A DNA stretch of 32,000 bases, taken from contig JAFGBS010000036.1 in the NCBI GenBank assembly GCA_016933055.1, positions 4,933-36,932 of the forward strand, read 5' to 3'. Made by a program: the position numbers and the translations under genes. The notes beneath the pieces were generated by a model, which made no database searches, was not told where the DNA came from, and saw only the letters and a program-made list of their open reading frames with translations. Position 1 is the first letter of the stretch. Each line of letters begins with the position of its first letter. Shown one piece after another: positions 1,692 through 22,700 of the stretch. Origin of the DNA: Promethearchaeota archaeon (GTDB taxonomy: Archaea; Asgardarchaeota; Lokiarchaeia; Sigyniarchaeales; Promethearchaeaceae).

Positions 1692-1834
1692 CAATATCCC
1701 TATATGATTCTCTTTAAAAATAATTACTGTATCCCGTTTATAAAGGTTTGAAGTCTAAAGAACTTTCATTATCAGGGGATTAATATTTATTATTTCAAAT
1801 TTGTGACGTGATAGTACGATTTTGATTCTATTTA

Positions 1835-1954
1835 GATTCTGTGGACCCGAACCTTTATCCGTCTCACCTACCCGCATGAACTGTTTAAAACTACGTTGTT
1901 AACTATTCAGACAATACTGTTACCTCTTCTACATGTGTTGAGAGAGGAAAAATG
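1835..1954 (+). repeat. Dispersed non-coding repeat, copy 1 (pairs with 8703-8822)
   Basis: Ungapped manual alignment to 8703-8822 gives 101/120 identities; weaker similarity extends to ~1820 and ~1990. Confidence 0.9.
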
Positions 1955-2440: not shown

Positions 2441-3385
2441 TTGGATAAAAATAATCAAGATTACCTATATTTACGTAAATTAGGATTATCACATGAAGAA
2501 ATCATAAATCGAATAAAACGGTACAGTAATCAGGGATTAACCGAAAGCGATGCATTAAAGACTCTAAAAACAGATGAAGAGAGAATCATTGAAATTCATA
2601 TCGAAATCGAAGGATTAAAAGTTTATTTTCTTAAGGTTCTTGCAGAGATTTTAGAGTTTCAAGTGATCCCAAATTTTCGTCAAGAACCTATTGATCTTGA
2701 ACTCTATGGTATAAACAATCAAAAACTGTATGAAATTAATTCATTACCTGTGTTGTTGGCAGTATTAGAAGAGATTAAAGCAGAAAATGAAAAACGAATA
2801 CCTGCAAAATATCCAGATTGGAATGATTATGGATATTTTCCTTATCATCGAAATCAAGCTATATCCAAATTATTAGAAAGTCGTGATTGGTATGTAGGAA
2901 GGTTAAAAACATATAAAAAACAAGGAATTTCAATAGATTTTCCATTCCAATCAGTAAAACCCACGTTTTTTAAAATTCCTGATAAAATCCAAAATACAAA
3001 CTTAATCTCGGTTATGATGCCTTTCAGAGAAGAATTTGATCCTATTTTTCAGGAAATCATGAAAGTTTGTGAAAACTTATCTATGGAATGCAAACGAGCT
3101 GATCAGATATTCGATAACTATATTGCAATTCAAGATGTGTTTGATTTAATATATCTCGCTCGTTGTATTATTGTGGAACTTACAGGAAAAAATCCGAATG
3201 TATTCTATGAGTTAGGGATTTCTCATGCTTTTGGGAAAAAAGTCATTCCGATTATCCGAAAAAGTGGAGAAAAAATTCCATTCGATGTGCAACATCACAA
3301 GGCTATCGAATATGAGGGTGATAAAATGGATGATTTCCGAGAGAAACTGGATAAACGACTAAAAATCATATTGAGTATTGCTTAG
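2441..3385 (+). CDS. Protein with C-terminal nucleoside 2-deoxyribosyltransferase-like (NDT/TIR-like) domain; putative nucleotide-cleaving defence effector
   Basis: SVMMPF...CKRADQI...IIVELTGKNPNVFYELGISHAFGKKVIPI...IPFDV is the characteristic NDT-like pattern; GAGGAGG SD upstream of the TTG start. Confidence 0.75.
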   Translation: MDKNNQDYLYLRKLGLSHEEIINRIKRYSNQGLTESDALKTLKTDEERIIEIHIEIEGLKVYFLKVLAEILEFQVIPNFRQEPIDLELYGINNQKLYEINSLPVLLAVLEEIKAENEKRIPAKYPDWNDYGYFPYHRNQAISKLLESRDWYVGRLKTYKKQGISIDFPFQSVKPTFFKIPDKIQNTNLISVMMPFREEFDPIFQEIMKVCENLSMECKRADQIFDNYIAIQDVFDLIYLARCIIVELTGKNPNVFYELGISHAFGKKVIPIIRKSGEKIPFDVQHHKAIEYEGDKMDDFREKLDKRLKIILSIA

Positions 3386-3508
3386 TTGAATGAGATTTCA
3401 TTCAAACTATCATAATCTTAATGGAATCGAATTTTACGTGAAAAAGGATTTTCAGGTAATTATTTAAGTCTCAATGTTAAAGGAATTCAATGGTATTATT
3501 ACTTTTTA

Positions 3509-6085
3509 ATGGGTCTAGGGGTAAAGATGAGTACGTTAACCAAAATGGGTGTGGAATTATATAATCTGATCAGCAACGTATTACGTTCTTATTCAAATGA
3601 AATCTCACCTTATGAAGCATTTGTCGATGAAATTGCTCAAAATTTCTTTGATTCTGCTAAAAAATATTATAGGTATTGCGTCAAGGAAAATGTAAAACCA
3701 ATAAATTCATCAATGAAAGTTCTTTTTATCGAAGATTATAATGGAAAACCAGCAATTGTAATTAAACAAACCGGTACAACAGGTATTATCCATAGAAAAG
3801 AATATGTCACATATTCTTTAACTCAAAAGGATAAGGATGAAGACGCTGCAGGAAGTCAAGGAGTTGGCTGGAAAATATGGTTTATGATATGCGATGAAGT
3901 GCATACAGAGACTATAGTCGATGGGAGATATTATCAAACTCTCCAAAGGGTAGAAAATAGAGATATAAAGGTCGCCCATAATGACGATAATTGGAGTACA
4001 TATTTTGAACATTTTCAAGACACATTAATAAGTGAAAATGGAGAAACTTCAATAAAGTTCTTGAATGTGAACAATTCACACGGTTTTAACGAAGATGAAT
4101 CAACAACATATTTTCAAGAATTATGGAAATGTTGTGAAAAAGTAATTCAGGAAAGATATTATTGGGCTCTGAAAAAATATCCTACATTTAGTGTTGATTT
4201 GATTTATACAAATTCAAAAAAAACTCAACCATCTCAGAAAGTCACTATCTCCCTTAATGAATACCCTCCTTTATATCCAGGATTAAATGATTCCGATTGC
4301 AGAACCTCAAATAAATTCATTCGTAACAAGACCAAAAATTACGGTGTGGTCAAAGATATCTTTGTTGGATTTACAAATGAAATTCATTCAAAAATAAATG
4401 ATGGAGTAGCAATTATTGTCAGAGATAGGGTAGTTGAATGGTATAATCCTAGGTCACAATGGGTTGGAACGCCTGGTGCTAATGGAAAATTAATTGGTCA
4501 TGTTTGTTGTGATTTTCTATATAAAAAAGACAATATGACTCATGATAAATTAAATGATATTTTTCCCGAAGTAAAACTGACTAGGCATTTCATAAGAACG
4601 TTGATACAGAAACTATACGTAAAAATAAATGAACTTCATGTTGTTGATGTGCCTAAAGTTTCACACGGAAATACAATTTTAACAACAATAAACAACGCAA
4701 TTGCTGAATTTATTGATAGTGAGGATTTGTTTTCAGAAGCAAAATCAGATATTGACTATGAACCTTTGGGAGAAGAACCATTTAATAAAACTCCTAAACC
4801 TGAGAAATTCATTTATATCAAAGGAATTTTATTAACTGAAAAAATTGAAGATGGAATTCCCCAAAAAATGAATGATACTGATCCATTAACTCCGAGTAAT
4901 GAATATAGCGCGTTAGTGGAAATTTTAAACACAAAAGATGAATGTGAAGCTATTGTCAATTACTCTTCATTTCCAAAATATTTTGAAATTAAAAGAGCGA
5001 TAAAAATATCCCCAGGAACCACTAAGGACATTTTTAAATTCCAGATACCCGAAGATGCAATGAGAGGAGCATTTCATTTAAAAAGTATTGTTAGATCTCA
5101 AGATGAAAAACTATTGGAAAAAAGGATCATTTCAAGAGAAATCCTACCTATAATTTCAAAGGTAGAATTATCTGAAAGAAATTTTGAGAGAGGGAATGAA
5201 TATCAAATTTCCTATAAGGTTTGTAGATCCTCTTTGAGGGGAAACAGAGAATTCTCGTGCAAAATATATGACAATGAAAATTTTGAAATTCATGAAGAAG
5301 GACCTATAACTTTAAAACGGGCTGAAACAGATAAAATTGAATCTTTTTATTTTAAAATTCCCCCTCAAGCACTAAGAGGGAGATATACTTTTGAGTATCA
5401 GGTAAAAAATGGACCAAATATCATACAAAAAGGAAGAGAATACTTCTTTGTGGAGTTATTCATCAATAGAATAAAATCATCAAAACGAATTGTAAAGTAC
5501 AATGAAAAATTTGATATTACCGTCGATCTTGAAAATAAAAGACAGATCCCTGTAGAAGATGCAGAATTAACAATAAGAATTGAAAATTCTAATCATTTTG
5601 AAATGAAAAAAGAATTTACAAACATTTCTATTCAGAAAAATTCAGACTTCGCAATAAAACTTGGAGATTTAGAATTTGATGAAGATTGTGATACAGGAAA
5701 ATATAGTGTTATTGTTGAATTCAAGCTAGAAGATGATTTTGCTCCAGAAGTGAAAACAACAAAAATTTTCCTCGAAACAGAAACTAGTACCAAAGATTCG
5801 AAGGGAGCTCTTAGTCATTTTGATTATAATAAGAGCATTAAAGGATATGAGGATAAAAATCTGGCAGTTTCTGTTGAAGGCACAATAATGATCAATACTT
5901 TTCATTATTTATTTAGGCGAATTGAAACTCCTACTGGGATTGATCTCAATCTATTCAAACAATGCATCATTCAAGCATTATGGTTTGCGTTTCGAGATCA
6001 GATAACAAAGGATAATAGATTTGAAGAAATGTGGGAATTTGAGAAATATATACTAGAGGATAAAAAATTGGGGGAGATTTTATGA
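3509..6085 (+). CDS. GHKL-family (MORC/MutL/Hsp90-like) ATPase with three tandem Ig-like beta-sandwich repeats
   Basis: Bergerat motifs: EIAQNFFD (ExxxNxxD), QTGTTGI (variant G1), AAGSQGVGWK (G2), GETSIKF. Three ~100-aa beta-rich repeats with FxIPxxAxRGxY/F-type corners; C-terminal IMINTFHYLF. True start may be ATG 3527. Confidence 0.75.
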   Translation: MGLGVKMSTLTKMGVELYNLISNVLRSYSNEISPYEAFVDEIAQNFFDSAKKYYRYCVKENVKPINSSMKVLFIEDYNGKPAIVIKQTGTTGIIHRKEYVTYSLTQKDKDEDAAGSQGVGWKIWFMICDEVHTETIVDGRYYQTLQRVENRDIKVAHNDDNWSTYFEHFQDTLISENGETSIKFLNVNNSHGFNEDESTTYFQELWKCCEKVIQERYYWALKKYPTFSVDLIYTNSKKTQPSQKVTISLNEYPPLYPGLNDSDCRTSNKFIRNKTKNYGVVKDIFVGFTNEIHSKINDGVAIIVRDRVVEWYNPRSQWVGTPGANGKLIGHVCCDFLYKKDNMTHDKLNDIFPEVKLTRHFIRTLIQKLYVKINELHVVDVPKVSHGNTILTTINNAIAEFIDSEDLFSEAKSDIDYEPLGEEPFNKTPKPEKFIYIKGILLTEKIEDGIPQKMNDTDPLTPSNEYSALVEILNTKDECEAIVNYSSFPKYFEIKRAIKISPGTTKDIFKFQIPEDAMRGAFHLKSIVRSQDEKLLEKRIISREILPIISKVELSERNFERGNEYQISYKVCRSSLRGNREFSCKIYDNENFEIHEEGPITLKRAETDKIESFYFKIPPQALRGRYTFEYQVKNGPNIIQKGREYFFVELFINRIKSSKRIVKYNEKFDITVDLENKRQIPVEDAELTIRIENSNHFEMKKEFTNISIQKNSDFAIKLGDLEFDEDCDTGKYSVIVEFKLEDDFAPEVKTTKIFLETETSTKDSKGALSHFDYNKSIKGYEDKNLAVSVEGTIMINTFHYLFRRIETPTGIDLNLFKQCIIQALWFAFRDQITKDNRFEEMWEFEKYILEDKKLGEIL

Positions 6086-7740
6086 CAGAGAAATTATTAG
6101 ACACCGATAAAGGAAAACAAGATTATATAGATCCTATTGTAGGTGAAGATCCACTACTAAATACAGAAAAATCAGGTAGAGTATCTCAGATAGCTCAAAA
6201 GTTGCACCAAGCTTTGAATTTCAATGATAATGAATGGATTCAACTTGCGTTAGACTTACTCGTTGGGAAGATGATTATGGATTATAAATATCTAGTTATG
6301 GTAAAATATTCAGAGTATATAGGATTAGGAAAACAGAATATTTTTCTGGTTCATGATATCGGGACACTTGTTAATGATTTTGTGTCAAAACGAGAAATAG
6401 ATTTAGAAAATAAAGAGTTTCGAAAGAGCTCAGGATTTACATTTAATCGAGGAAGTGTGATAAATCATCTAACCTCTCTAATAGATTTTTCGTCCAAAAA
6501 TGAAAAAAAATACAATTTCAATCAAACATATCTTCGAAATTTTTCAACTATTGCATATGAGTTTGACAAAAATGAATTGGATCCTGAAATCCCTGTATAC
6601 ATATATAAAGAATTAGTAGAACGAGTTCCAGTAGATATGTTTGAAACCCCTAATCAAAGAAAAAGGTTTCAAAATAATATATTAGAATTGCGTAGAGAAG
6701 AAACTTTCACAGACAGACACTTGAGGATTATAATAAATTTAGTAAGGGAAGATCCTATAAATAGAGCAAAAATTGAGTACATACGTCGAATTTTGCCTGA
6801 TGTAAAAGAAATTAAAACTTCTATGAGTTTTCCTGATGCTTTAAATTATGTCAAATCTATTGAAAAATCTGGTAAGCAGAAAAAAGAACAAGTACTTCCC
6901 AGTTTGGAACAGAATGGAGTGCTTCGTTTACCACAAGCTAATGATGTTTCAAAATTCATCAAAATTGTCCAAGATGTTTCTCATGGAATAACAAAACCAG
7001 AACAATTAGCCGATAATATAGAAATTTCTGAACGCCAGATACATTATTATAAGGATGCAGCTCAAATTCTAAATTTATTAACAGAGAATGGGAGAAATTA
7101 TACATTCACACTCACCTCTATTGGTCAAAAACTTGCTGAGACTAAAGACGAAAACGAACAGAATGAAATTTTATATCACCAAATAATGAAAACCGAAGTT
7201 ATTAAGCACATTTTCTTAATGTTAAAAGAAAGTCAAGAAGATTATATCCTCGTTGAAGAATACTTGAATGATTTAAAGCATAGGAGTGCTCTATCTGATT
7301 CTACGATCGCAAGAAGAACAGCAGCTATAATAAGCTGGATTAGATGGATTGAAAGTTACAATGAATTATTACGGATTGTCGAAGAAAAAATAATAGTTAA
7401 GAACGAATTCTCTTGGAATTGCGTTAAAAAACAAATTCTTGAAATTATCAATAAATATCGAACAATCAATACACTAGCTAATGGAAAACCAAATATTATC
7501 GAAGTATTTGATGATACAGGATTAATGGTAAAGACTGATCACGACTCAGAAGCAAAAAAAGTTTCATTTAACACAATTAAAGATGTATGGTTCAATTTAG
7601 TAGAATATGGAGAATTAGAACTGGATAATCATGAGCTGACCTCTTATAGAAGTTCGTTTGTTTGCTCTTTATTGTCTCAATTACCAATTGTCAATGTTTT
7701 AAAAGAGGGAAAAATCTCGATAAAATTGGTTGGGATTTAA
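6082..7740 (+). CDS. Multidomain putative DNA-binding protein (winged-helix PQAxD...RQxxYY module typical of restriction-associated proteins)
   Basis: ATGA overlap with the upstream stop. LPQANDVSKFIKIV...SERQIHYYKDAAQILNLL...FTLTSIGQKL resembles wHTH modules fused to restriction enzymes and methylases; no catalytic motif found. Confidence 0.6.
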   Translation: MTEKLLDTDKGKQDYIDPIVGEDPLLNTEKSGRVSQIAQKLHQALNFNDNEWIQLALDLLVGKMIMDYKYLVMVKYSEYIGLGKQNIFLVHDIGTLVNDFVSKREIDLENKEFRKSSGFTFNRGSVINHLTSLIDFSSKNEKKYNFNQTYLRNFSTIAYEFDKNELDPEIPVYIYKELVERVPVDMFETPNQRKRFQNNILELRREETFTDRHLRIIINLVREDPINRAKIEYIRRILPDVKEIKTSMSFPDALNYVKSIEKSGKQKKEQVLPSLEQNGVLRLPQANDVSKFIKIVQDVSHGITKPEQLADNIEISERQIHYYKDAAQILNLLTENGRNYTFTLTSIGQKLAETKDENEQNEILYHQIMKTEVIKHIFLMLKESQEDYILVEEYLNDLKHRSALSDSTIARRTAAIISWIRWIESYNELLRIVEEKIIVKNEFSWNCVKKQILEIINKYRTINTLANGKPNIIEVFDDTGLMVKTDHDSEAKKVSFNTIKDVWFNLVEYGELELDNHELTSYRSSFVCSLLSQLPIVNVLKEGKISIKLVGI

Positions 7741-8432
7741 TGAATTCACATGATGCTATTGCTCGGAAATTTGAGAATTATTTCCAAAACGCACGTATGA
7801 CTTCAAGCTATAAACCTGTGATGTTATTGTCAATTTTGTATCATATTAAACAAAGAAAATCCACGTATCTTCCTTCTGCGAATATTTATTTTATTTCATT
7901 GAATGATATCGCACTATTTTTTCTGAAATTCTATTTTTATACGCTTAAGTATTATGATCTTAACCATTTGACCAATAAAAATAACAAAATTGGGATTTAC
8001 AGAATAATTGAGAAATATTTCCGTGATTTCAATACATTCCCAGAGTACTTAAATCATAAAATTATCACAAAAACAATCAACCAATTATTTCGAAATGTTA
8101 TCTTCTTGCTACTGAATGATATATATTTATATGATTTTTACGATGAGCAATTTCAAGAATTTCGATTACCTCACGAGTTTATTGGTAAAGATGATTTTCG
8201 AGTTGTTATCAAAAATAAAAAAATTCGAGTCGAAGAAATTAAGTACTTAGGAATTAAAGAATCAGCATACCTTTATCTTAGTTTAAATTATACGAATCTT
8301 AAAAAGAAGATAAACCTAAATTTGATTCAATTTCTAAAAAAAGTAAATTACTCTTTTGATTCCTTTGATGAAATAGATAGATTTTATGATAATTTATCAA
8401 ATTTGAAAAATATGATGTCAGATTCTAATTAG
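7740..8432 (+). CDS. SBD-like (SYKxxLLxxI) winged-helix reader-domain protein lacking the usual C-terminal HNH nuclease
   Basis: TAATG overlap gives start at 7740 (track extends to 7662). TSSYKPVMLLSIL...ISLNDIALFFLKFY matches the N-terminal domain of many HNH restriction proteins; no CxxC/HNH motif before the stop. Confidence 0.55.
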   Translation: MNSHDAIARKFENYFQNARMTSSYKPVMLLSILYHIKQRKSTYLPSANIYFISLNDIALFFLKFYFYTLKYYDLNHLTNKNNKIGIYRIIEKYFRDFNTFPEYLNHKIITKTINQLFRNVIFLLLNDIYLYDFYDEQFQEFRLPHEFIGKDDFRVVIKNKKIRVEEIKYLGIKESAYLYLSLNYTNLKKKINLNLIQFLKKVNYSFDSFDEIDRFYDNLSNLKNMMSDSN

Positions 8433-8702
8433 CTCAGAAATTCTATTTCTAAAGATATGGTAATTTGTCGTCTTGGACTCTCTGGAAAGAATGGAAACTA
8501 CCGAAAAAGTATTTTTTCAAATTAGGATTAATTCGGTAGAATTTGCTAAAAATATGAATATAATCTTGGAACAGCACTATCGAAATTTTTTATTGTATTT
8601 TAAATCAGTAAAAATGTAAAATGCAAAGTCCAAAGTGTAAACAATAGGAATTGCTATTGGTCCACATCTTTAATGTGATAACATATTTTTGATTCCATTT
8701 TT

Positions 8703-8822
8703 GGTTCTGTGGATACGAGCCTTTATCCGTGCCACCTACCCGCACGAACCGTTTAACACTATATTGTTACCTATTCGGACTATACTGTTACCTCTTTAAC
8801 ATGTGTCAAGTGAGGAAAAATG
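8703..8822 (+). repeat. Dispersed non-coding repeat, copy 2 (pairs with 1835-1954)
   Basis: 101/120 identity to copy 1; ends in GAGG-AAAAATG; weaker similarity extends to ~8687 and ~8848. Confidence 0.9.
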
Positions 8823-14063: not shown

Positions 14064-14897
14064 TTAAGAGCATGAATCACACAAAGGATTTTCACGTGAT
14101 ACATTACTCTCCTCTCCACATTTCAAACAAAACTTTCCTTTTTCATGTTTATAATAGCAAACTGTACAAAATGGAGTTTTTACGTTAAAAAAAACGAATT
14201 TTCTACAACCTATACAAAATCCACGTTCTTCAATTGGGCGTAGACTTAGTTTACCACATTCTGGACAAATTAGAGTTTTATTACTATCTGTATTATGCAT
14301 TAACTCAAAACCGCACAATTTACAAAGCCATATTCCTGATCGCTGTTCTTTAAAATTTTCAGGTTTAACTTTTATTTCTTGACTTGAATTCATTATCGTC
14401 CAATCAATTGCAGGTAACAATTTTTCGTCGTATTCATCTGCAGTTTCGTGAATTGGTGTTGTATCTCCTGACCTCCTCATGGTTTCGACGTTTTCTATAA
14501 CCTTGTCATATAAATTCTTATCCTTTATCGAAGTTTCTGGTTCTATTAAGAATCCCATTTCCCAATTTTTTTTCCAGGAAGATTTAAGAAGGTTTAGAGA
14601 TGAAACAACCATTTTATTCTCATTATAATAACATTTCGAATGTAAATTAGCAACACAATAAAGATTAACATATTTCAACTCTTCCGCTACACGCTTTGCT
14701 TCTTGGATAGTCGCTTTTTTCTTACGATAATATATTTCGACTAAAATACCTCTCTCCTTAGATGCATATTTAAGATGAGAGTAGATTTTTTCCGGAAAGT
14801 CCAGAAAAGGACTGATTATAATTATGAACTTCCTCGCATCAATTATAACTTTAACAATCTCACCGCATGCTGCTTCCATAGGTAGAAATTCGACCAT
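14064..14897 (-). CDS. PLD-family (single HxK motif) putative nuclease with C-terminal Cys-rich Zn fingers
   Basis: IISPFL; NLHSKCYYNENKMVVSSLNL...NWEMG; multiple CxxC pairs at the C-terminus. Confidence 0.8.
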   Translation of the reverse strand: MVEFLPMEAACGEIVKVIIDARKFIIIISPFLDFPEKIYSHLKYASKERGILVEIYYRKKKATIQEAKRVAEELKYVNLYCVANLHSKCYYNENKMVVSSLNLLKSSWKKNWEMGFLIEPETSIKDKNLYDKVIENVETMRRSGDTTPIHETADEYDEKLLPAIDWTIMNSSQEIKVKPENFKEQRSGIWLCKLCGFELMHNTDSNKTLICPECGKLSLRPIEERGFCIGCRKFVFFNVKTPFCTVCYYKHEKGKFCLKCGEESNVSRENPLCDSCS

Positions 14898-17571: not shown

Positions 17572-18282
17572 TTGAATCGATATGTCAATCTTTTCTTTGG
17601 AAATTCCCCTGGAGCAAGAATATGTAGCCAATCATTAACTCTTTGCCTATATTCTAATACAATATCTATTAATATTTTTGCTTCATTAGGAATAAAGGCA
17701 TCAGGTCGGACGAAAAAACTTCCAAATTCCTATCGAAATTCCAAAAGAGTAGGCGAATTCGCACAATTTATCATGCCCAAAAAATTGAAAGAATTATCAA
17801 AATCACAAGATGAATTTAGATTTCCCGAAAAATATATCGGAATGCATGGAAGTATCAATTATGTAATTGCAAAATCAAAAATTGAGGAATATGATGAAAT
17901 CTTAAAGATAATTCAAGAAGAATTGAAGAATTCGACTAAAGGAAAATCATTTTTAGTTTTATTCCAAAGAAATCCATGGAACGACCGAAATAATAAGTTC
18001 TTTTCACAAGCTATGAAATACGATTTATTTGAAAATTTCCTGGATACTTGTACTTCCAGTGGATATGGGATTGTTGTGACTAGTTTGAGGAAAGCTAAAG
18101 GTTTAGAAGCTGACATCGTGTTCATTCCTGACCTGGAACAATATTATTATCAAGATCGACAACTCCTATATGTAGGAATGACTCGGACGAAAAATAAGTT
18201 GATATTATCATCGACTGAACCGAGCCAACCTAAGTCACTGGTGGAAGAAATCCAAAAATATCCCGATTGGCAAGAAGAATAG
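17572..18282 (+). pseudogene. C-terminal half of an SF1 (UvrD/REP-like) helicase; Walker A/B missing
   Basis: LPNSYRNS, TSLRKAKGLEADIVFI, LLYVGMTRTKNKL (motifs IV-VI); no N-terminal P-loop upstream. Confidence 0.7.
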
Positions 18283-18424: not shown

Positions 18425-19657
18425 ATGTGTGTGAATGTGGAGTTACAAAATCAAATTAGAATAAAATTTGAAGATCTTCCAAGAGCAGAATTAGTCTACG
18501 ATGCAATTTATGAGGGAGGCAGCACCGGAAATATTTCAGACGACGTTCTAAGTAATTTGTTTGAGGGTATCGGTAATTCGGGAGGTTTTCGCATATGCAA
18601 AAAAGTCGCTGACCCAGATGAAATTGCATATGTTATTCTCTATACAACAGGTTCTGAAATTGAATGGCCCGATATTTTCGACATATATCTCGGCACATTT
18701 CGTTATTGGGGCGACAATCGCACACCTGGAAAGGATATTCATGATACGCCCAAAGGTGGAAATAAACTCTTATTGGAAGTATTCGAAAAAATTGATAAGA
18801 GTGCTGAGGAGAGAAAATCAATTCCACCGTTTTTAGTCTTTCAAAAGATAGGAATGAAAAGAAATGTCAAATTCCTAGGATTGGCATGTCCTGGAAGAGA
18901 AAACTCGTCGTTAGTCGAGGATCTTCAAGCGGTATGGAAACATACTAATAATCAGAGATTTCAGAATTATCGTGCTTATTTTACAATTCTAAATATTGGT
19001 CCTGATAAAATTCGCAGAGACTGGCTCCAAGCACTGAGAAACGGAACAGATCCCGTACTATATCTAGCACCTAAAGCATGGAAAAATTTTGTGTTAAATG
19101 GACGAAAGGGAATTCATCCTCTAAAATCAGAACGTTTAACAAAATATCGAAATAAAGAAGAACAGCTTCCAAATAAACGAGAAAAATTACCCTTAGTAAA
19201 TGCGATATATAATTATTTTAAAGAGGATCCTTATGCTTTCGAACCTTGTGGCGCAGAACTTGCACAAATGATGGATGAAAACATAATTGATGTAGACATT
19301 ACTCGAACTCATCGTGACGGTGGAAGAGATGCTCTAGCAAAATACAAGATTGGCATTAAGGATAATAACTTACTGGTGGAATGCGCTATGGAAATGAAGT
19401 GCTATTCTCTCGAAAATTCTTGCGGAGTCAAAGAAACTTCAAGATTAATATCTCGTATTCGACATCGACAGTTTGGGATTTTGGTTACAACTAGTTACAT
19501 TGCAGGTCAAGCCTACAAGGAAATTGTGGAAGATGAACACCCCATATTGATTATATCCGCAGGAGATATAGCGGAGATACTTATTAAACATGGATATAAC
19601 AGCGTAGAGAAAGTAAAAGAATGGTTGAAAAAATTCCCACAAATAAGAAATGCATAA
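18425..19657 (+). CDS. AspBHI/MspJI-type modification-dependent (type IV) restriction endonuclease: SRA-like N-terminal domain plus Mrr-type catalytic domain
   Basis: DAIYEGG, GNSGGFR, EWPD, FRYWGDNRTPG (AspBHI N-domain); DGGRDA...EMKCY...RLISRIRHRQFGILVTTS (Mrr_cat PD-(D/E)xK). Confidence 0.9.
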   Translation: MCVNVELQNQIRIKFEDLPRAELVYDAIYEGGSTGNISDDVLSNLFEGIGNSGGFRICKKVADPDEIAYVILYTTGSEIEWPDIFDIYLGTFRYWGDNRTPGKDIHDTPKGGNKLLLEVFEKIDKSAEERKSIPPFLVFQKIGMKRNVKFLGLACPGRENSSLVEDLQAVWKHTNNQRFQNYRAYFTILNIGPDKIRRDWLQALRNGTDPVLYLAPKAWKNFVLNGRKGIHPLKSERLTKYRNKEEQLPNKREKLPLVNAIYNYFKEDPYAFEPCGAELAQMMDENIIDVDITRTHRDGGRDALAKYKIGIKDNNLLVECAMEMKCYSLENSCGVKETSRLISRIRHRQFGILVTTSYIAGQAYKEIVEDEHPILIISAGDIAEILIKHGYNSVEKVKEWLKKFPQIRNA

Positions 19658-19853: not shown

Positions 19854-22700
19854 TCAGTCTTCATAACGCATCCCACCATATTTCTTATAATCTTCCAAAA
19901 ATCGCTCTGCTTTCTTTTTCTCTTTCGCATACCTATTATCTAATTCCCTTTTCCGATGTAAATCTTCCTGCTCATTCTTTACAAACCACTCTTGTATATA
20001 GAAAGTTTGTTCTTCTCCATATTCGAATCCATAACTTGGACGGGTAACACTTTTAGGAAGCCAGATTTCGATGTTCTCTTGAAAATCATTTTTTACCTCA
20101 CAACAAATCGCATCCATAGATGTTCGAATAATTTTACCCTTAATTCTATAGGTTCCAGTATTGGATGTTAAGTTCGCAAAGAATTCCTCTCTAGTGGTCG
20201 GTATTTGGTCTAAGAATTCGGATAAGTTGGGTAGTTGGGCGAAAATGTGCACTTGTTTTTTAGCCCGAGTCAATGCAACATAAAATAGTCTTCTCTCTTC
20301 ATCTAAGTCATCGGGCAGGTCGGGATTGATGAGTTTGTGGTCAAAAGAGGATGTCAATTCCGAGGGTAATCCGTATAAACCTTTATACACATTCATTAAA
20401 ATCACGTATTCAGCTTCCAATCCTTTCGCTTTATGGATAGAATGGAATCGAATCCCGTTTCTGACCATTTCACCTTCCTTCATTAGCGCTACTGGAATTT
20501 CCTTGTCTTTAAGGCAATAATCAAACAGATCTGAGTACCCGAAATTAAATCGGGAGAGAATCATAATTTCCTTGGGATCTACTCCCTCTCGAATCCATTT
20601 CTTAATCAAATCCACAATTAGGTCGTGCTGTTCTTGGGTAAAACTACGTTTACCGCCATACATTCGCTTTAAGAACATCGATGGTTCGTCAGTTCTATTC
20701 ACTGGAACTAAATCTTTCGGAATATAATCTGAACAGGCATTTATATGCGTAGAACTAAAATTAACTATAGGAGGGGGATTACGATAATTCAACTGTAATA
20801 TCGTTTGAGCCACGGGGAAAAAAAATTGATCTAATTTGACCATGTATTTATTAGATGCTCCTGAAAATCCATAAATTGACTGCCAATCATCTCCTACGAA
20901 AAACATATGGCATTCCTTTCCTCTTTTGCGTAATTCTTGGAGTAATCGTAAACGCTGAAACGAAATGTCCTGAAACTCATCGATGAAGATCATGGTATAG
21001 CTACAAAATTCTTTCGCTTCTTCATTCGTTACTGGCCGTTCCAGATATTGTACGGCATGGTTTATCATATCTTGATAATCAATTTTCCCTTGTGCAGCAA
21101 GATAATCCTCATATGCTTCAAATATGGGGAAAACAAGAGTTAAAAAAGCGTGATCTTTCCGATGTAGTTTCTTATTGCGCAGATGGGTAGAAAGAGTCGT
21201 TGAATTATATCCATAAATTTTAGCATCCATGATCGTAGTATGAATCATATCCGAAAGGATCTTCAGACGATGGGGTAAATTGTCTATACGTTTAATAATT
21301 TCTTGATGAGATAGGGGTGCTGCCTCTCGATTTTGGATTTTCCATAATTGCCGAACAAAATCCAATAGTTTTTTCGATAATTTCCCGGTTTTCCAATCCC
21401 AATAATCCGTTTCCAGTAAATTCTTGCCATATTTTCTAAACTGAGCCTTTTTCCATTCCATTTCTTTAAAATATTTAGGCACATCCTCAATAACGGGATT
21501 ATACACGTTTGGAAAATCTTTCGAAATACCCCAGTGCTCAAGATAGGTATCGAATTCTGGTAAATAGAAATCGGGGTGATATTCACGCCCGGACTCATCC
21601 TTATCACACCAATCTACTTTCATTTCATACACAAAATTTATCCCGTGAGTGATAAAGAAGTTCGCAATTTCTTTCTCAGCAACGCTTTTTACTCGACTTC
21701 CATCCAATGCCTCATAGGGTTTATTTTCTTGGTAACTATACATCTTTCGAAGTCTTTCTTCATTTTCTTCCTCCTCAGCGATAAATTCGGAAATATTGCT
21801 ATAGTATTGGATGTATAAATGCTGGTAAATCGGATCATCAGCTTTTTTGATTTCAATTAATTCTCGGATTACATGGGTTGTATTCTCCTCTACCCTAATC
21901 TCTTCTTCCCTATCTTTAAAACGATTAACAATTTTAAATCCCAGACTATGAAAAGTGCGTACTTCCACATCTTGAATTCCATAAATATTCTTCAAGCGTT
22001 CAATTATCTCAGCAACAGCTGTTCGATTGTATGCCATAACCAAAATGCCTTCAGCAGGAATTTCCTTTTTTAATACATAAAAAGCAACTCGATCTACTAA
22101 TACTCGAGTTTTTCCAGACCCAGGTCCTGCTACAACGAGGTTATTGTCATCGTTAACCAAGATTGCCCGAATTTGGTTTTCATTTAATTGAACGGATTGA
22201 TTAAACTCCGTACCATCAAAAAAGGAATGATATTTCTGCCTATGTTTTTTTAAGTAAACTGTATTATATTCTCGGACAAAATTTTCCAAACGGTTAATCT
22301 TTTCTTCAATATGTCTTGTTTCCTCCCTCCATATTCTTCCGAATCCCCTTAATTGGTTTTTATAAGATTTCAAAGTCTTATCTATTGCGTTCTTTTTCGA
22401 AGTAGTGAGATAATTGGAATACTCCTCTAAAAGAGAAAAAATTCCACGATGAAATTCATCATATTCAGTTTCAAATTGTGCAATTTTTTGTATACTCTCT
22501 CGTTCGCGATAGAATTTCCAAACAGACAAGTAAGTATCTCGTAAGAATAGAGCAACAATGCCAATAGATGCAAACAGTGCGAGAATAAACCAAGGATTAA
22601 CTACTATAGTCAGAATAAAGAAACTGATCGTAATTATAACACTCGAGATAACAATCATCCATTCTTTAAGAGGGATATTTAGTTCATTCTCCATGCGCAA
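19854..22700 (-). CDS. UvrD-family DNA helicase IV (HelD)-like protein with N-terminal TM helices and an inserted PD-(D/E)xK-like nuclease domain
   Basis: AGPGSGKT, DEFQD, GDDWQSIY, NYR, HKAKGLE, EERRLFYVALTRA; insert VKSVAEKEIANF...YE...YHPDFYL...YLEHWG; hydrophobic residues ~14-53. Confidence 0.85.
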   Translation of the reverse strand: MRMENELNIPLKEWMIVISSVIITISFFILTIVVNPWFILALFASIGIVALFLRDTYLSVWKFYRERESIQKIAQFETEYDEFHRGIFSLLEEYSNYLTTSKKNAIDKTLKSYKNQLRGFGRIWREETRHIEEKINRLENFVREYNTVYLKKHRQKYHSFFDGTEFNQSVQLNENQIRAILVNDDNNLVVAGPGSGKTRVLVDRVAFYVLKKEIPAEGILVMAYNRTAVAEIIERLKNIYGIQDVEVRTFHSLGFKIVNRFKDREEEIRVEENTTHVIRELIEIKKADDPIYQHLYIQYYSNISEFIAEEEENEERLRKMYSYQENKPYEALDGSRVKSVAEKEIANFFITHGINFVYEMKVDWCDKDESGREYHPDFYLPEFDTYLEHWGISKDFPNVYNPVIEDVPKYFKEMEWKKAQFRKYGKNLLETDYWDWKTGKLSKKLLDFVRQLWKIQNREAAPLSHQEIIKRIDNLPHRLKILSDMIHTTIMDAKIYGYNSTTLSTHLRNKKLHRKDHAFLTLVFPIFEAYEDYLAAQGKIDYQDMINHAVQYLERPVTNEEAKEFCSYTMIFIDEFQDISFQRLRLLQELRKRGKECHMFFVGDDWQSIYGFSGASNKYMVKLDQFFFPVAQTILQLNYRNPPPIVNFSSTHINACSDYIPKDLVPVNRTDEPSMFLKRMYGGKRSFTQEQHDLIVDLIKKWIREGVDPKEIMILSRFNFGYSDLFDYCLKDKEIPVALMKEGEMVRNGIRFHSIHKAKGLEAEYVILMNVYKGLYGLPSELTSSFDHKLINPDLPDDLDEERRLFYVALTRAKKQVHIFAQLPNLSEFLDQIPTTREEFFANLTSNTGTYRIKGKIIRTSMDAICCEVKNDFQENIEIWLPKSVTRPSYGFEYGEEQTFYIQEWFVKNEQEDLHRKRELDNRYAKEKKKAERFLEDYKKYGGMRYED

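Follow-up and report, generated by a model that had tools for sequence, protein, structure and literature searches.

A 32,000-nucleotide (nt) stretch of the genome of a Promethearchaeota archaeon (assembly GCA_016933055.1, contig JAFGBS010000036.1, positions 4,933 to 36,932; hereafter the window) encodes a GHL-class ATPase, here termed GHKL-Ig, together with a dedicated partner protein. GHKL-Ig is composed of an N-terminal GHKL domain with an S5-like transducer, an acidic linker, three tandem repeats predicted to fold as Ig-like β-sandwiches, and a small C-terminal α/β domain (Table 1). Its family is new, very rare and horizontally scattered, and falls within the known GHKL+S5 defence-associated kind. 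Because this anatomy fits both the clamp plan of GHL machines and the pattern of extensions that paraMORC proteins carry in restriction and defence loci, GHKL-Ig and its partner may be central to a so far undescribed module that acts against viruses or plasmids in the manner of other GHL machines, a reading whose chances we put at about even.

The gene lies in a window of ~31% G+C and has an alternative start at Met7 (nt 3527), giving 852 residues, the form of the database copy. An exhaustive HMMER search recovered 14 relatives among 1.84 billion representative proteins, six of them full length (802-874 residues) and 17-40% identical over the whole alignment. Further members were found in a Methanophagales metagenome-assembled genome (MAG; JAFNKG010000034.1, locus L012) by a scan with the N-terminal half, on two metagenome contigs (L015 and L017), and in a genome of the host's own order (L024). 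The distribution of the family is patchy, since only three of 101 related genomes, the host included, carry it. No member is encoded on viral contigs, and word-indexed profile searches added none to either the ATPase or the partner family. The host genome (3.76 Mb, 91% complete) contains an archaeal small-subunit rRNA and three actin-family genes (C6:299695-300807, C2:259727-260785 and C27:50776-51723); the strongest of these matches the Pfam Actin model along its full length at 435 bits. This content fits the Asgard host assumed in the original prediction, a note made from the DNA letters before this analysis. The other GHKL proteins of the host are ordinary: MutL, GyrB and histidine kinases.

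The N-terminal half was modelled with AlphaFold2 on a 10-sequence alignment (predicted local distance difference test, pLDDT, 70.6), yielding a good core and low confidence across residues 379-450. The model adopts the α/β sandwich of the Bergerat fold, followed directly by an S5-fold transducer, the arrangement that defines the GHL subclass. Foldseek ranks Hsp90, TRAP1, GRP94 and HtpG on top (E 6e-12, ~400 aligned columns), Atlas searches lead to prokaryotic HATPase_c_3 and HtpG clusters, and hhalign against Escherichia coli HtpG (E 8.6e-4) places the N box, G1, G2 and the next strand in register. In that alignment, the catalytic E41, the Mg-binding N45 and D48 of the ExxxNxxD motif pair with ELISNASD of HtpG, and G115, G118 and G120 of the GxxGxG ATP lid pair with GQFGVG. 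These matches to Hsp90/HtpG/HATPase_c_3-type proteins identify the N-terminal part as a GHL-class ATPase module and bear out the Bergerat fold proposed earlier. Among MORC, SMCHD1 and Hsp90 the nearest relative cannot be told apart: by structure, SMCHD1, MORC3 and GRP94 score within 1 Z unit of one another, and the family sequence profile gets as far as TRAP1 (E 0.24) and MORC3 (E 0.32) without reaching SMCHD1.

Pfam, NCBIfam and PADLOC scans of GHKL-Ig gave nothing above threshold, and the same scans of all homologues returned single faint matches only (SACS 0.0087, MG2 0.069, MG3 0.11). HATPase_c_3 (PF13589) has no match at E<=1 in GHKL-Ig or nine homologues, language-model features alone pointing to HATPase_c_3 clusters, and phmmer found no match to GHKL-Ig among Protein Data Bank (PDB) sequences. 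Within the transducer, the S5 strand departs from the MORC signature GhXhhpXXRhl (Iyer, Abhiman and Aravind 2008, PMC2292703) at the polar position and otherwise agrees with it, and its Arg is His in two of eight homologues. GHL proteins have a conserved basic S5 residue that contacts the γ-phosphate; across transducer residues 201-378 of this family no Lys or Arg is invariant, R216 being present in 8/9 sequences and H345 in 8/8.

The active site departs from the superfamily at one position. The DxGxG motif of G1, whose Asp contacts adenine, is replaced by QTGTTG, and Gln87 stands opposite Asp80 of E. coli HtpG (hhalign) and the corresponding TRAP1 Asp (HMMER alignment). A Gln at this place had already been noticed in the original prediction, and it extends to the whole family: across 13 homologues checked (all ten aligned sequences and three further loci), E41, N45, D48, Q87, G92, G115, G118, G120, W121, K122, E134 and Y141 are invariant. 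Gln87 is thus a family hallmark rather than the decay of one copy. Together with otherwise intact catalytic residues, the invariant Gln suggests a working site with altered nucleotide recognition, not a dead one.

C-terminal to the complete GHKL-transducer module lies the linker, whose net charge falls between -5 and -11 in each of the seven full-length members, and then the repeats; they are thus not inserted inside the ATPase, as first described, and their position between the linker and the C-terminal IxINxxHxxF domain agrees with the earlier account. Residues 440-858 were modelled with AlphaFold2 on a 10-sequence alignment at a mean pLDDT of 86 (~90 over the β region), revealing three all-β units of about seven strands each and a small α/β domain. 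Each unit of ~100 residues forms a Greek-key β-sandwich of seven strands with a Gly-x-Tyr corner. Foldseek aligns the three repeats jointly (E 6e-12) with the macroglobulin domains that stand in tandem in CD109, TEP1, alpha-2-macroglobulin and complement C3, with RbmA also among the matches, and the Atlas matches are macroglobulin or CARDB arrays. The models therefore predict β-sandwiches of the Ig-like/macroglobulin/CARDB kind.

Family profiles of the units match in register (hhalign; R1-R2, E 1.7e-7; R2-R3, E 8.2e-8 over 101 columns; R1-R3, E 2.2e-5), so the three repeats are homologous, arising from an old triplication common to all full-length members. The alignment pairs exactly the three corner motifs that had been matched by eye, and model, Foldseek and profile comparison agree on the three β-rich repeats of ~100 residues proposed from the sequence; every motif quoted at that stage was found, a few bases at most from where it had been placed. 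The homology is visible only with family profiles: self-BLAST of residues 431-800 detected no internal repeat, and single-sequence Smith-Waterman comparison was marginal, with z 3.1 for R1/R2 and a local alignment out of register for R2/R3. In GHKL-Ig and six homologues, a Kyte-Doolittle scan found no 19-residue hydrophobic window above 1.6, and no signal-like N-terminus was present; the protein is accordingly predicted to be soluble and cytoplasmic, as had been supposed.

In the model of the tail, a β-hairpin is followed by the motif IxINxxHxLF and then by three or four helices. N796 and F802 do not vary in the family; H799, W842 and E845 are nearly invariant. The motif resembles the ELNPDH strand-helix element of the Hsp90 C-terminal domain, a resemblance that we keep as a lead only. 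In the window (5864-5920) it lies in register with ELNPDHVLV of E. coli HtpG at a score equalled by 84 of 2000 shuffles, which is not significant, and neither hhalign nor a PDB profile search of the tail recovered similarity to Hsp90 or HtpG.

The partner follows the GHKL-Ig gene in all ten loci examined, at a distance of 0-23 nt in nine of them (the window, L001, L002, L004, L005, L007, L012, L015 and L024). In L017 (780-2791) the homologue is split into two adjacent open reading frames (237 and 430 residues) with a partner-like gene 478 nt further on, possibly a decayed copy. The N-terminal ~220 residues are shared by nine aligned loci and by L024 (hhalign E 2.2e-9), and the partner family equals the ATPase family in rarity. 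The window's partner alone carries DUF7226/AAA_assoc_C and a further C-terminal domain of ~125 residues (6958-7740); the others are 229-456 residues long. The partner profile matches one PDB chain, the Cas3-type HD domain 8wth_A (E 2.5e-4), in an alignment that takes in the HDIGK motif, and Atlas feature and structure searches with the partner were uninformative (template modelling score <= 0.30). The literature on DUF7226, 8WTH and Asgard MORC or GHKL proteins offered nothing relevant.

Association of the two proteins was assessed by complex prediction, with the partner set against the N-terminal and C-terminal halves of the ATPase as separate chains. The prediction scored 0.52 (best control, 0.00), with at least 30% of contacts shared between runs and a partner pLDDT of at least 70, and the score fell to 0.00 once the C-terminal half was replaced. 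Of 80 solved complexes, 58 reached the mark applied to such predictions, as did two of 110 mismatched pairs; with scores of 0.60 or below, only seven of the 80 complexes reached it, and both passing mismatches did.

The genomic context is that of restriction and defence loci. In the Methanophagales MAG, GHKL-Ig and its partner (L012:24-13479) stand beside a divergent DISARM-like set (PLD, MZB/DUF1998, superfamily 2 (SF2) helicase and UvrD), upstream of an N6 DNA methylase. The neighbours include an HNH nuclease and a methyltransferase in L015; HpaII endonuclease, C5 methylase and HhH-GPD in L017; TIR_2 and an N4/N6 methylase in L001; two C5 methylases in L004; and DNA glycosylases in L005. Upstream of the window's pair (2441-3385) lies a gene for a 314-residue TIR-like protein, whose residues 221-303 match the PADLOC TIR effector model (1.6e-8) and which matches no Pfam family. 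Neither the genes upstream in L015 nor TIR_2 in L001 show similarity to this gene; since it is not conserved with the family, the conserved core comprises two genes, GHKL-Ig and its partner.

The window also contains direct repeats that bracket four co-oriented genes; they might delimit a cassette or stem from the duplication of a regulatory region. These and the more distant nuclease, restriction and helicase genes are listed in Table 1.

Table 1. Features of the window (positions in nucleotides from its first letter; residues are those of the encoded protein)
Feature	Position	Strand	Remarks
Direct repeat of 124 nt, left copy	1831..1954		Brackets four-gene block 2441-8432
GHKL-(β-sandwich)x3-CTD (C-terminal domain) protein, coding sequence	3509..6085	+	One open reading frame, 858 residues
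GHKL (Bergerat) ATPase domain and S5-like transducer	3542..4642	+	Residues ~12-378
N box, D40-E41-x-x-Q44-N45-F-F-D48	3626..3652	+	Glu41, Asn45 and Asp48 invariant
G1-like box, QTGTTG	3767..3784	+	Residues 87-92; invariant Gln87 at the position of the adenine-binding Asp of other GHKL proteins
G2 box, G115-S-x-G118-x-G120-W-K122	3851..3874	+	Glycines invariant
S5-domain strand, GVAIIVRDRVV	4403..4435	+	Residues 299-309; resembles MORC signature GhXhhpXXRhl
Acidic linker	4643..4825	+	Residues 379-439; low model confidence
Predicted β-sandwich repeat 1	4826..5143	+	Residues 440-545; AlphaFold2 model, Foldseek, profile comparison
Repeat 1 corner motif, FQIPEDAMRGAF	5039-5074	+	Residues 511-522
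Predicted β-sandwich repeat 2	5153..5452	+	Residues 549-648; AlphaFold2 model, Foldseek, profile comparison
Repeat 2 corner motif, FKIPPQALRGRY	5351-5386	+	Residues 615-626
Predicted β-sandwich repeat 3	5462..5776	+	Residues 652-756; AlphaFold2 model, Foldseek, profile comparison
Repeat 3 corner motif, FDEDCDTGKY	5675-5704	+	Residues 723-732
C-terminal α/β domain	5864..6082	+	Residues ~786-858; model and family alignment
Partner gene, 552 residues	6082..7740	+	ATG overlaps upstream stop (ATGA)
Partner N-terminal helical domain	6199..6861	+	Partner residues ~40-260; present directly downstream of every homologue
DUF7226 (PF23871; DUF7226/AAA_assoc_C)	6958..7356	+	Partner residues 293-425; in the window's partner only
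Direct repeat, right copy	8699..8822		84% identical; 6868 nt from left copy
PLD-type nuclease with zinc ribbon	14064-14897	-	
Short open reading frame	17572-18282		Holds a UvrD C-terminal piece alone; may be a gene fragment
AspBHI-N + Mrr_cat type IV restriction enzyme	18425-19657		
UvrD-family helicase	19854-22700	-	948 residues

How such a module might operate can be sketched from other GHL machines. In GHL clamps, an ATP-gated head at the N-terminus is joined through a flexible linker to a distal domain holding a dimer or an effector, and GHKL-Ig shows the same layout. We infer a dimer whose two N-terminal ATPase heads would come together on binding nucleotide, while the tail, the partner or both would keep the other ends together. 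The three β-sandwiches could serve as stiff arms of ~10 nm, with DNA or an invader protein as the target that they enclose or sense, and hydrolysis would reset the clamp. Output might pass through the variable C-terminal extension of the partner (here DUF7226 and one more domain) or through neighbouring nucleases and TIR-like effectors, with the Ig-like arms and a contact between tail and partner linking closure of the heads to these variable outputs. Precedents for cytoplasmic Ig-like domains as specificity or DNA-binding elements exist, by analogy, in the AGS-C domains, by which CBASS and Pycsar adjust their specificity for phages (bioRxiv 10.1101/2023.05.21.541620) and in the BAH-IGL-1 region of SMCHD1, which binds DNA and stimulates the ATPase (bioRxiv 10.64898/2026.02.05.704097).

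Several observations weigh against a defence clamp of this kind. Mean pairwise identity is lowest in the repeats (17-22%), higher in the GHKL domain (32%) and highest in the tail (36%). The repeats also lack a consistent positive charge, R3 being mostly acidic; for these reasons they are equally likely to be passive spacers or sensors, and their binding to DNA is not indicated. Neighbouring genes vary by locus, the partner alone being conserved, and no recognisable conserved effector is evident across the loci; L007-L009 have no obvious defence genes nearby (ABC2 membrane protein, PAP2 and a peptidase). The HD dyad occurs in two of the nine aligned partners (the window's and that of L007, at 2662-3540), the others having YE, WE, WK or YK, and no His or Asp, the residues that bind metal in a Cas3-type HD domain, is invariant among the nine. 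With the dyad retained so rarely, the partner, if it has an HD fold, is mostly degenerate and probably non-catalytic, and the complex prediction argues only weakly for its binding to the ATPase.

Nucleotide binding is itself in question, as replacement of the G1 Asp (Asp-to-Asn mutants) abolishes ATP binding in Hsp90 and GyrB, and GHKL-Ig may likewise not bind ATP. Taken further, this would make the protein a nucleotide-independent scaffold, a pseudo-ATPase whose Ig-like array and tail would make it a purely structural adaptor. The transducer would also conform to this, having an invariant His345 where no invariant Lys or Arg is found. A dead site would not be expected to preserve Glu41, Asn45, Asp48, the G2 glycines and Lys122 across sequences 17-49% identical, and the invariance of Gln87 itself argues for selection on a specific contact; we therefore consider the scaffold unlikely. 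A divergent Hsp90/HtpG-type chaperone that acquired three β-sandwiches, with a role in folding or stress and not in defence, would account for the top Foldseek ranks, the profile matches to TRAP1 and HtpG, the acidic linker, the register of the tail motif with HtpG, and the lack of HtpG among the HATPase_c_3 matches of the host genome. Against it stand the shuffled-sequence and hhalign results for the tail and the lack of a match to Pfam HSP90 (PF00183). A housekeeping chaperone would hardly be confined to three of 101 related genomes, nor would restriction, DISARM and TIR neighbours and a dedicated partner be expected of one, and three β-sandwiches here replace most of the middle and C region of Hsp90-type proteins. 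We give this explanation a slim chance.

The original prediction saw in GHKL-Ig a parallel to, or precursor of, eukaryotic SMCHD1. That SMCHD1 combines a GHKL ATPase with an Ig-like domain is confirmed by IGL-1, which follows BAH directly C-terminal to the ATPase (bioRxiv 10.64898/2026.02.05.704097), and the architectural parallel is real. The precursor is another matter. An archaeal chromatin organiser sharing descent with SMCHD1 or MORC would make the GHKL and Ig-like architecture pre-eukaryotic, but the family is patchy among relatives, sits within defence islands, and also occurs on metagenomic contigs and, outside Asgard archaea, in the Methanophagales MAG. GHKL-Ig lacks the UBL, BAH and SMC-hinge domains (no Pfam match; the tail is an α/β domain of ~75 residues), starts directly with GHKL, has an acidic linker after the transducer, and spans ~860 residues against ~2000 for SMCHD1. 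It further differs in its G1 Asp-to-Gln replacement and in its prokaryotic defence-island setting, and there is no specific sequence signal: profiles reach TRAP1 and MORC3 at E 0.2-0.3 only and SMCHD1 not at all, while the structural scores are tied. As Ig-like arrays have been added to proteins very often, convergence is the simplest explanation; descent is not supported, and we give it very little credence.

Prokaryotic MORC and paraMORC proteins are among the known systems closest to the proposed defence module. They too combine N-terminal GHKL and S5 domains with family-specific C-terminal extensions, occur in restriction-modification neighbourhoods, are distributed sporadically in a manner consistent with lateral transfer, and neighbour methylases, helicases, HNH, PLD and restriction-fold nucleases and TIR proteins (PMC2292703). 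The S5 strand of GHKL-Ig resembles the MORC motif. GHKL-Ig differs in having no HATPase_c_3 Pfam match and a G1 Gln, whereas the ATP-binding motifs of paraMORC are described as intact; its extension, in place of a nuclease or TIR domain, consists of three predicted Ig-like domains and a small tail; and its conserved companion is a helical partner of its own, not an SF2 helicase. Tiamat and sacsin-like GHL ATPases (bioRxiv 10.64898/2026.09.30.754977) likewise act in prokaryotic defence, with substrate-binding folds after the ATPase and methylase, helicase and nuclease neighbours. GHKL-Ig has no PADLOC match and, by Pfam, neither a DUF3684 core nor a C-terminal nuclease, and its architecture differs from the published description of Tiamat. 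The Ig-like domains of AlkC, with AGS-C of the CBASS and Pycsar cyclases, also count among the closest known systems. Hsp90, HtpG, TRAP1 and GRP94 share the N-terminal and middle-domain fold, the acidic linker and possibly the tail motif, from which the rarity, patchiness and dedicated partner of GHKL-Ig set it apart.

DNA repair, chromatin silencing and immunity all make use of GHKL+S5 ATPases as molecular clamps, among them MutL, MORC, SMCHD1, Hsp90 and Tiamat. The present family brings to this plan three tandem, predicted Ig-like domains between motor and tail, a dedicated partner gene, and a family-wide loss of the Asp that holds adenine in all well-studied GHKL enzymes, with the other catalytic residues kept. 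In its boldest form, which we think improbable, the pair would lie at the heart of a new archaeal immune system, in which the Gln-respecified pocket might read GTP or a signalling nucleotide and the Ig-like array would present an invader-sensing surface. Should the site prove active, the family would illustrate the re-tuning of a Bergerat pocket; should the module guard against viruses, a further defence system would become known in Asgard and anaerobic methanotrophic (ANME) archaea, whose immunity is poorly charted.

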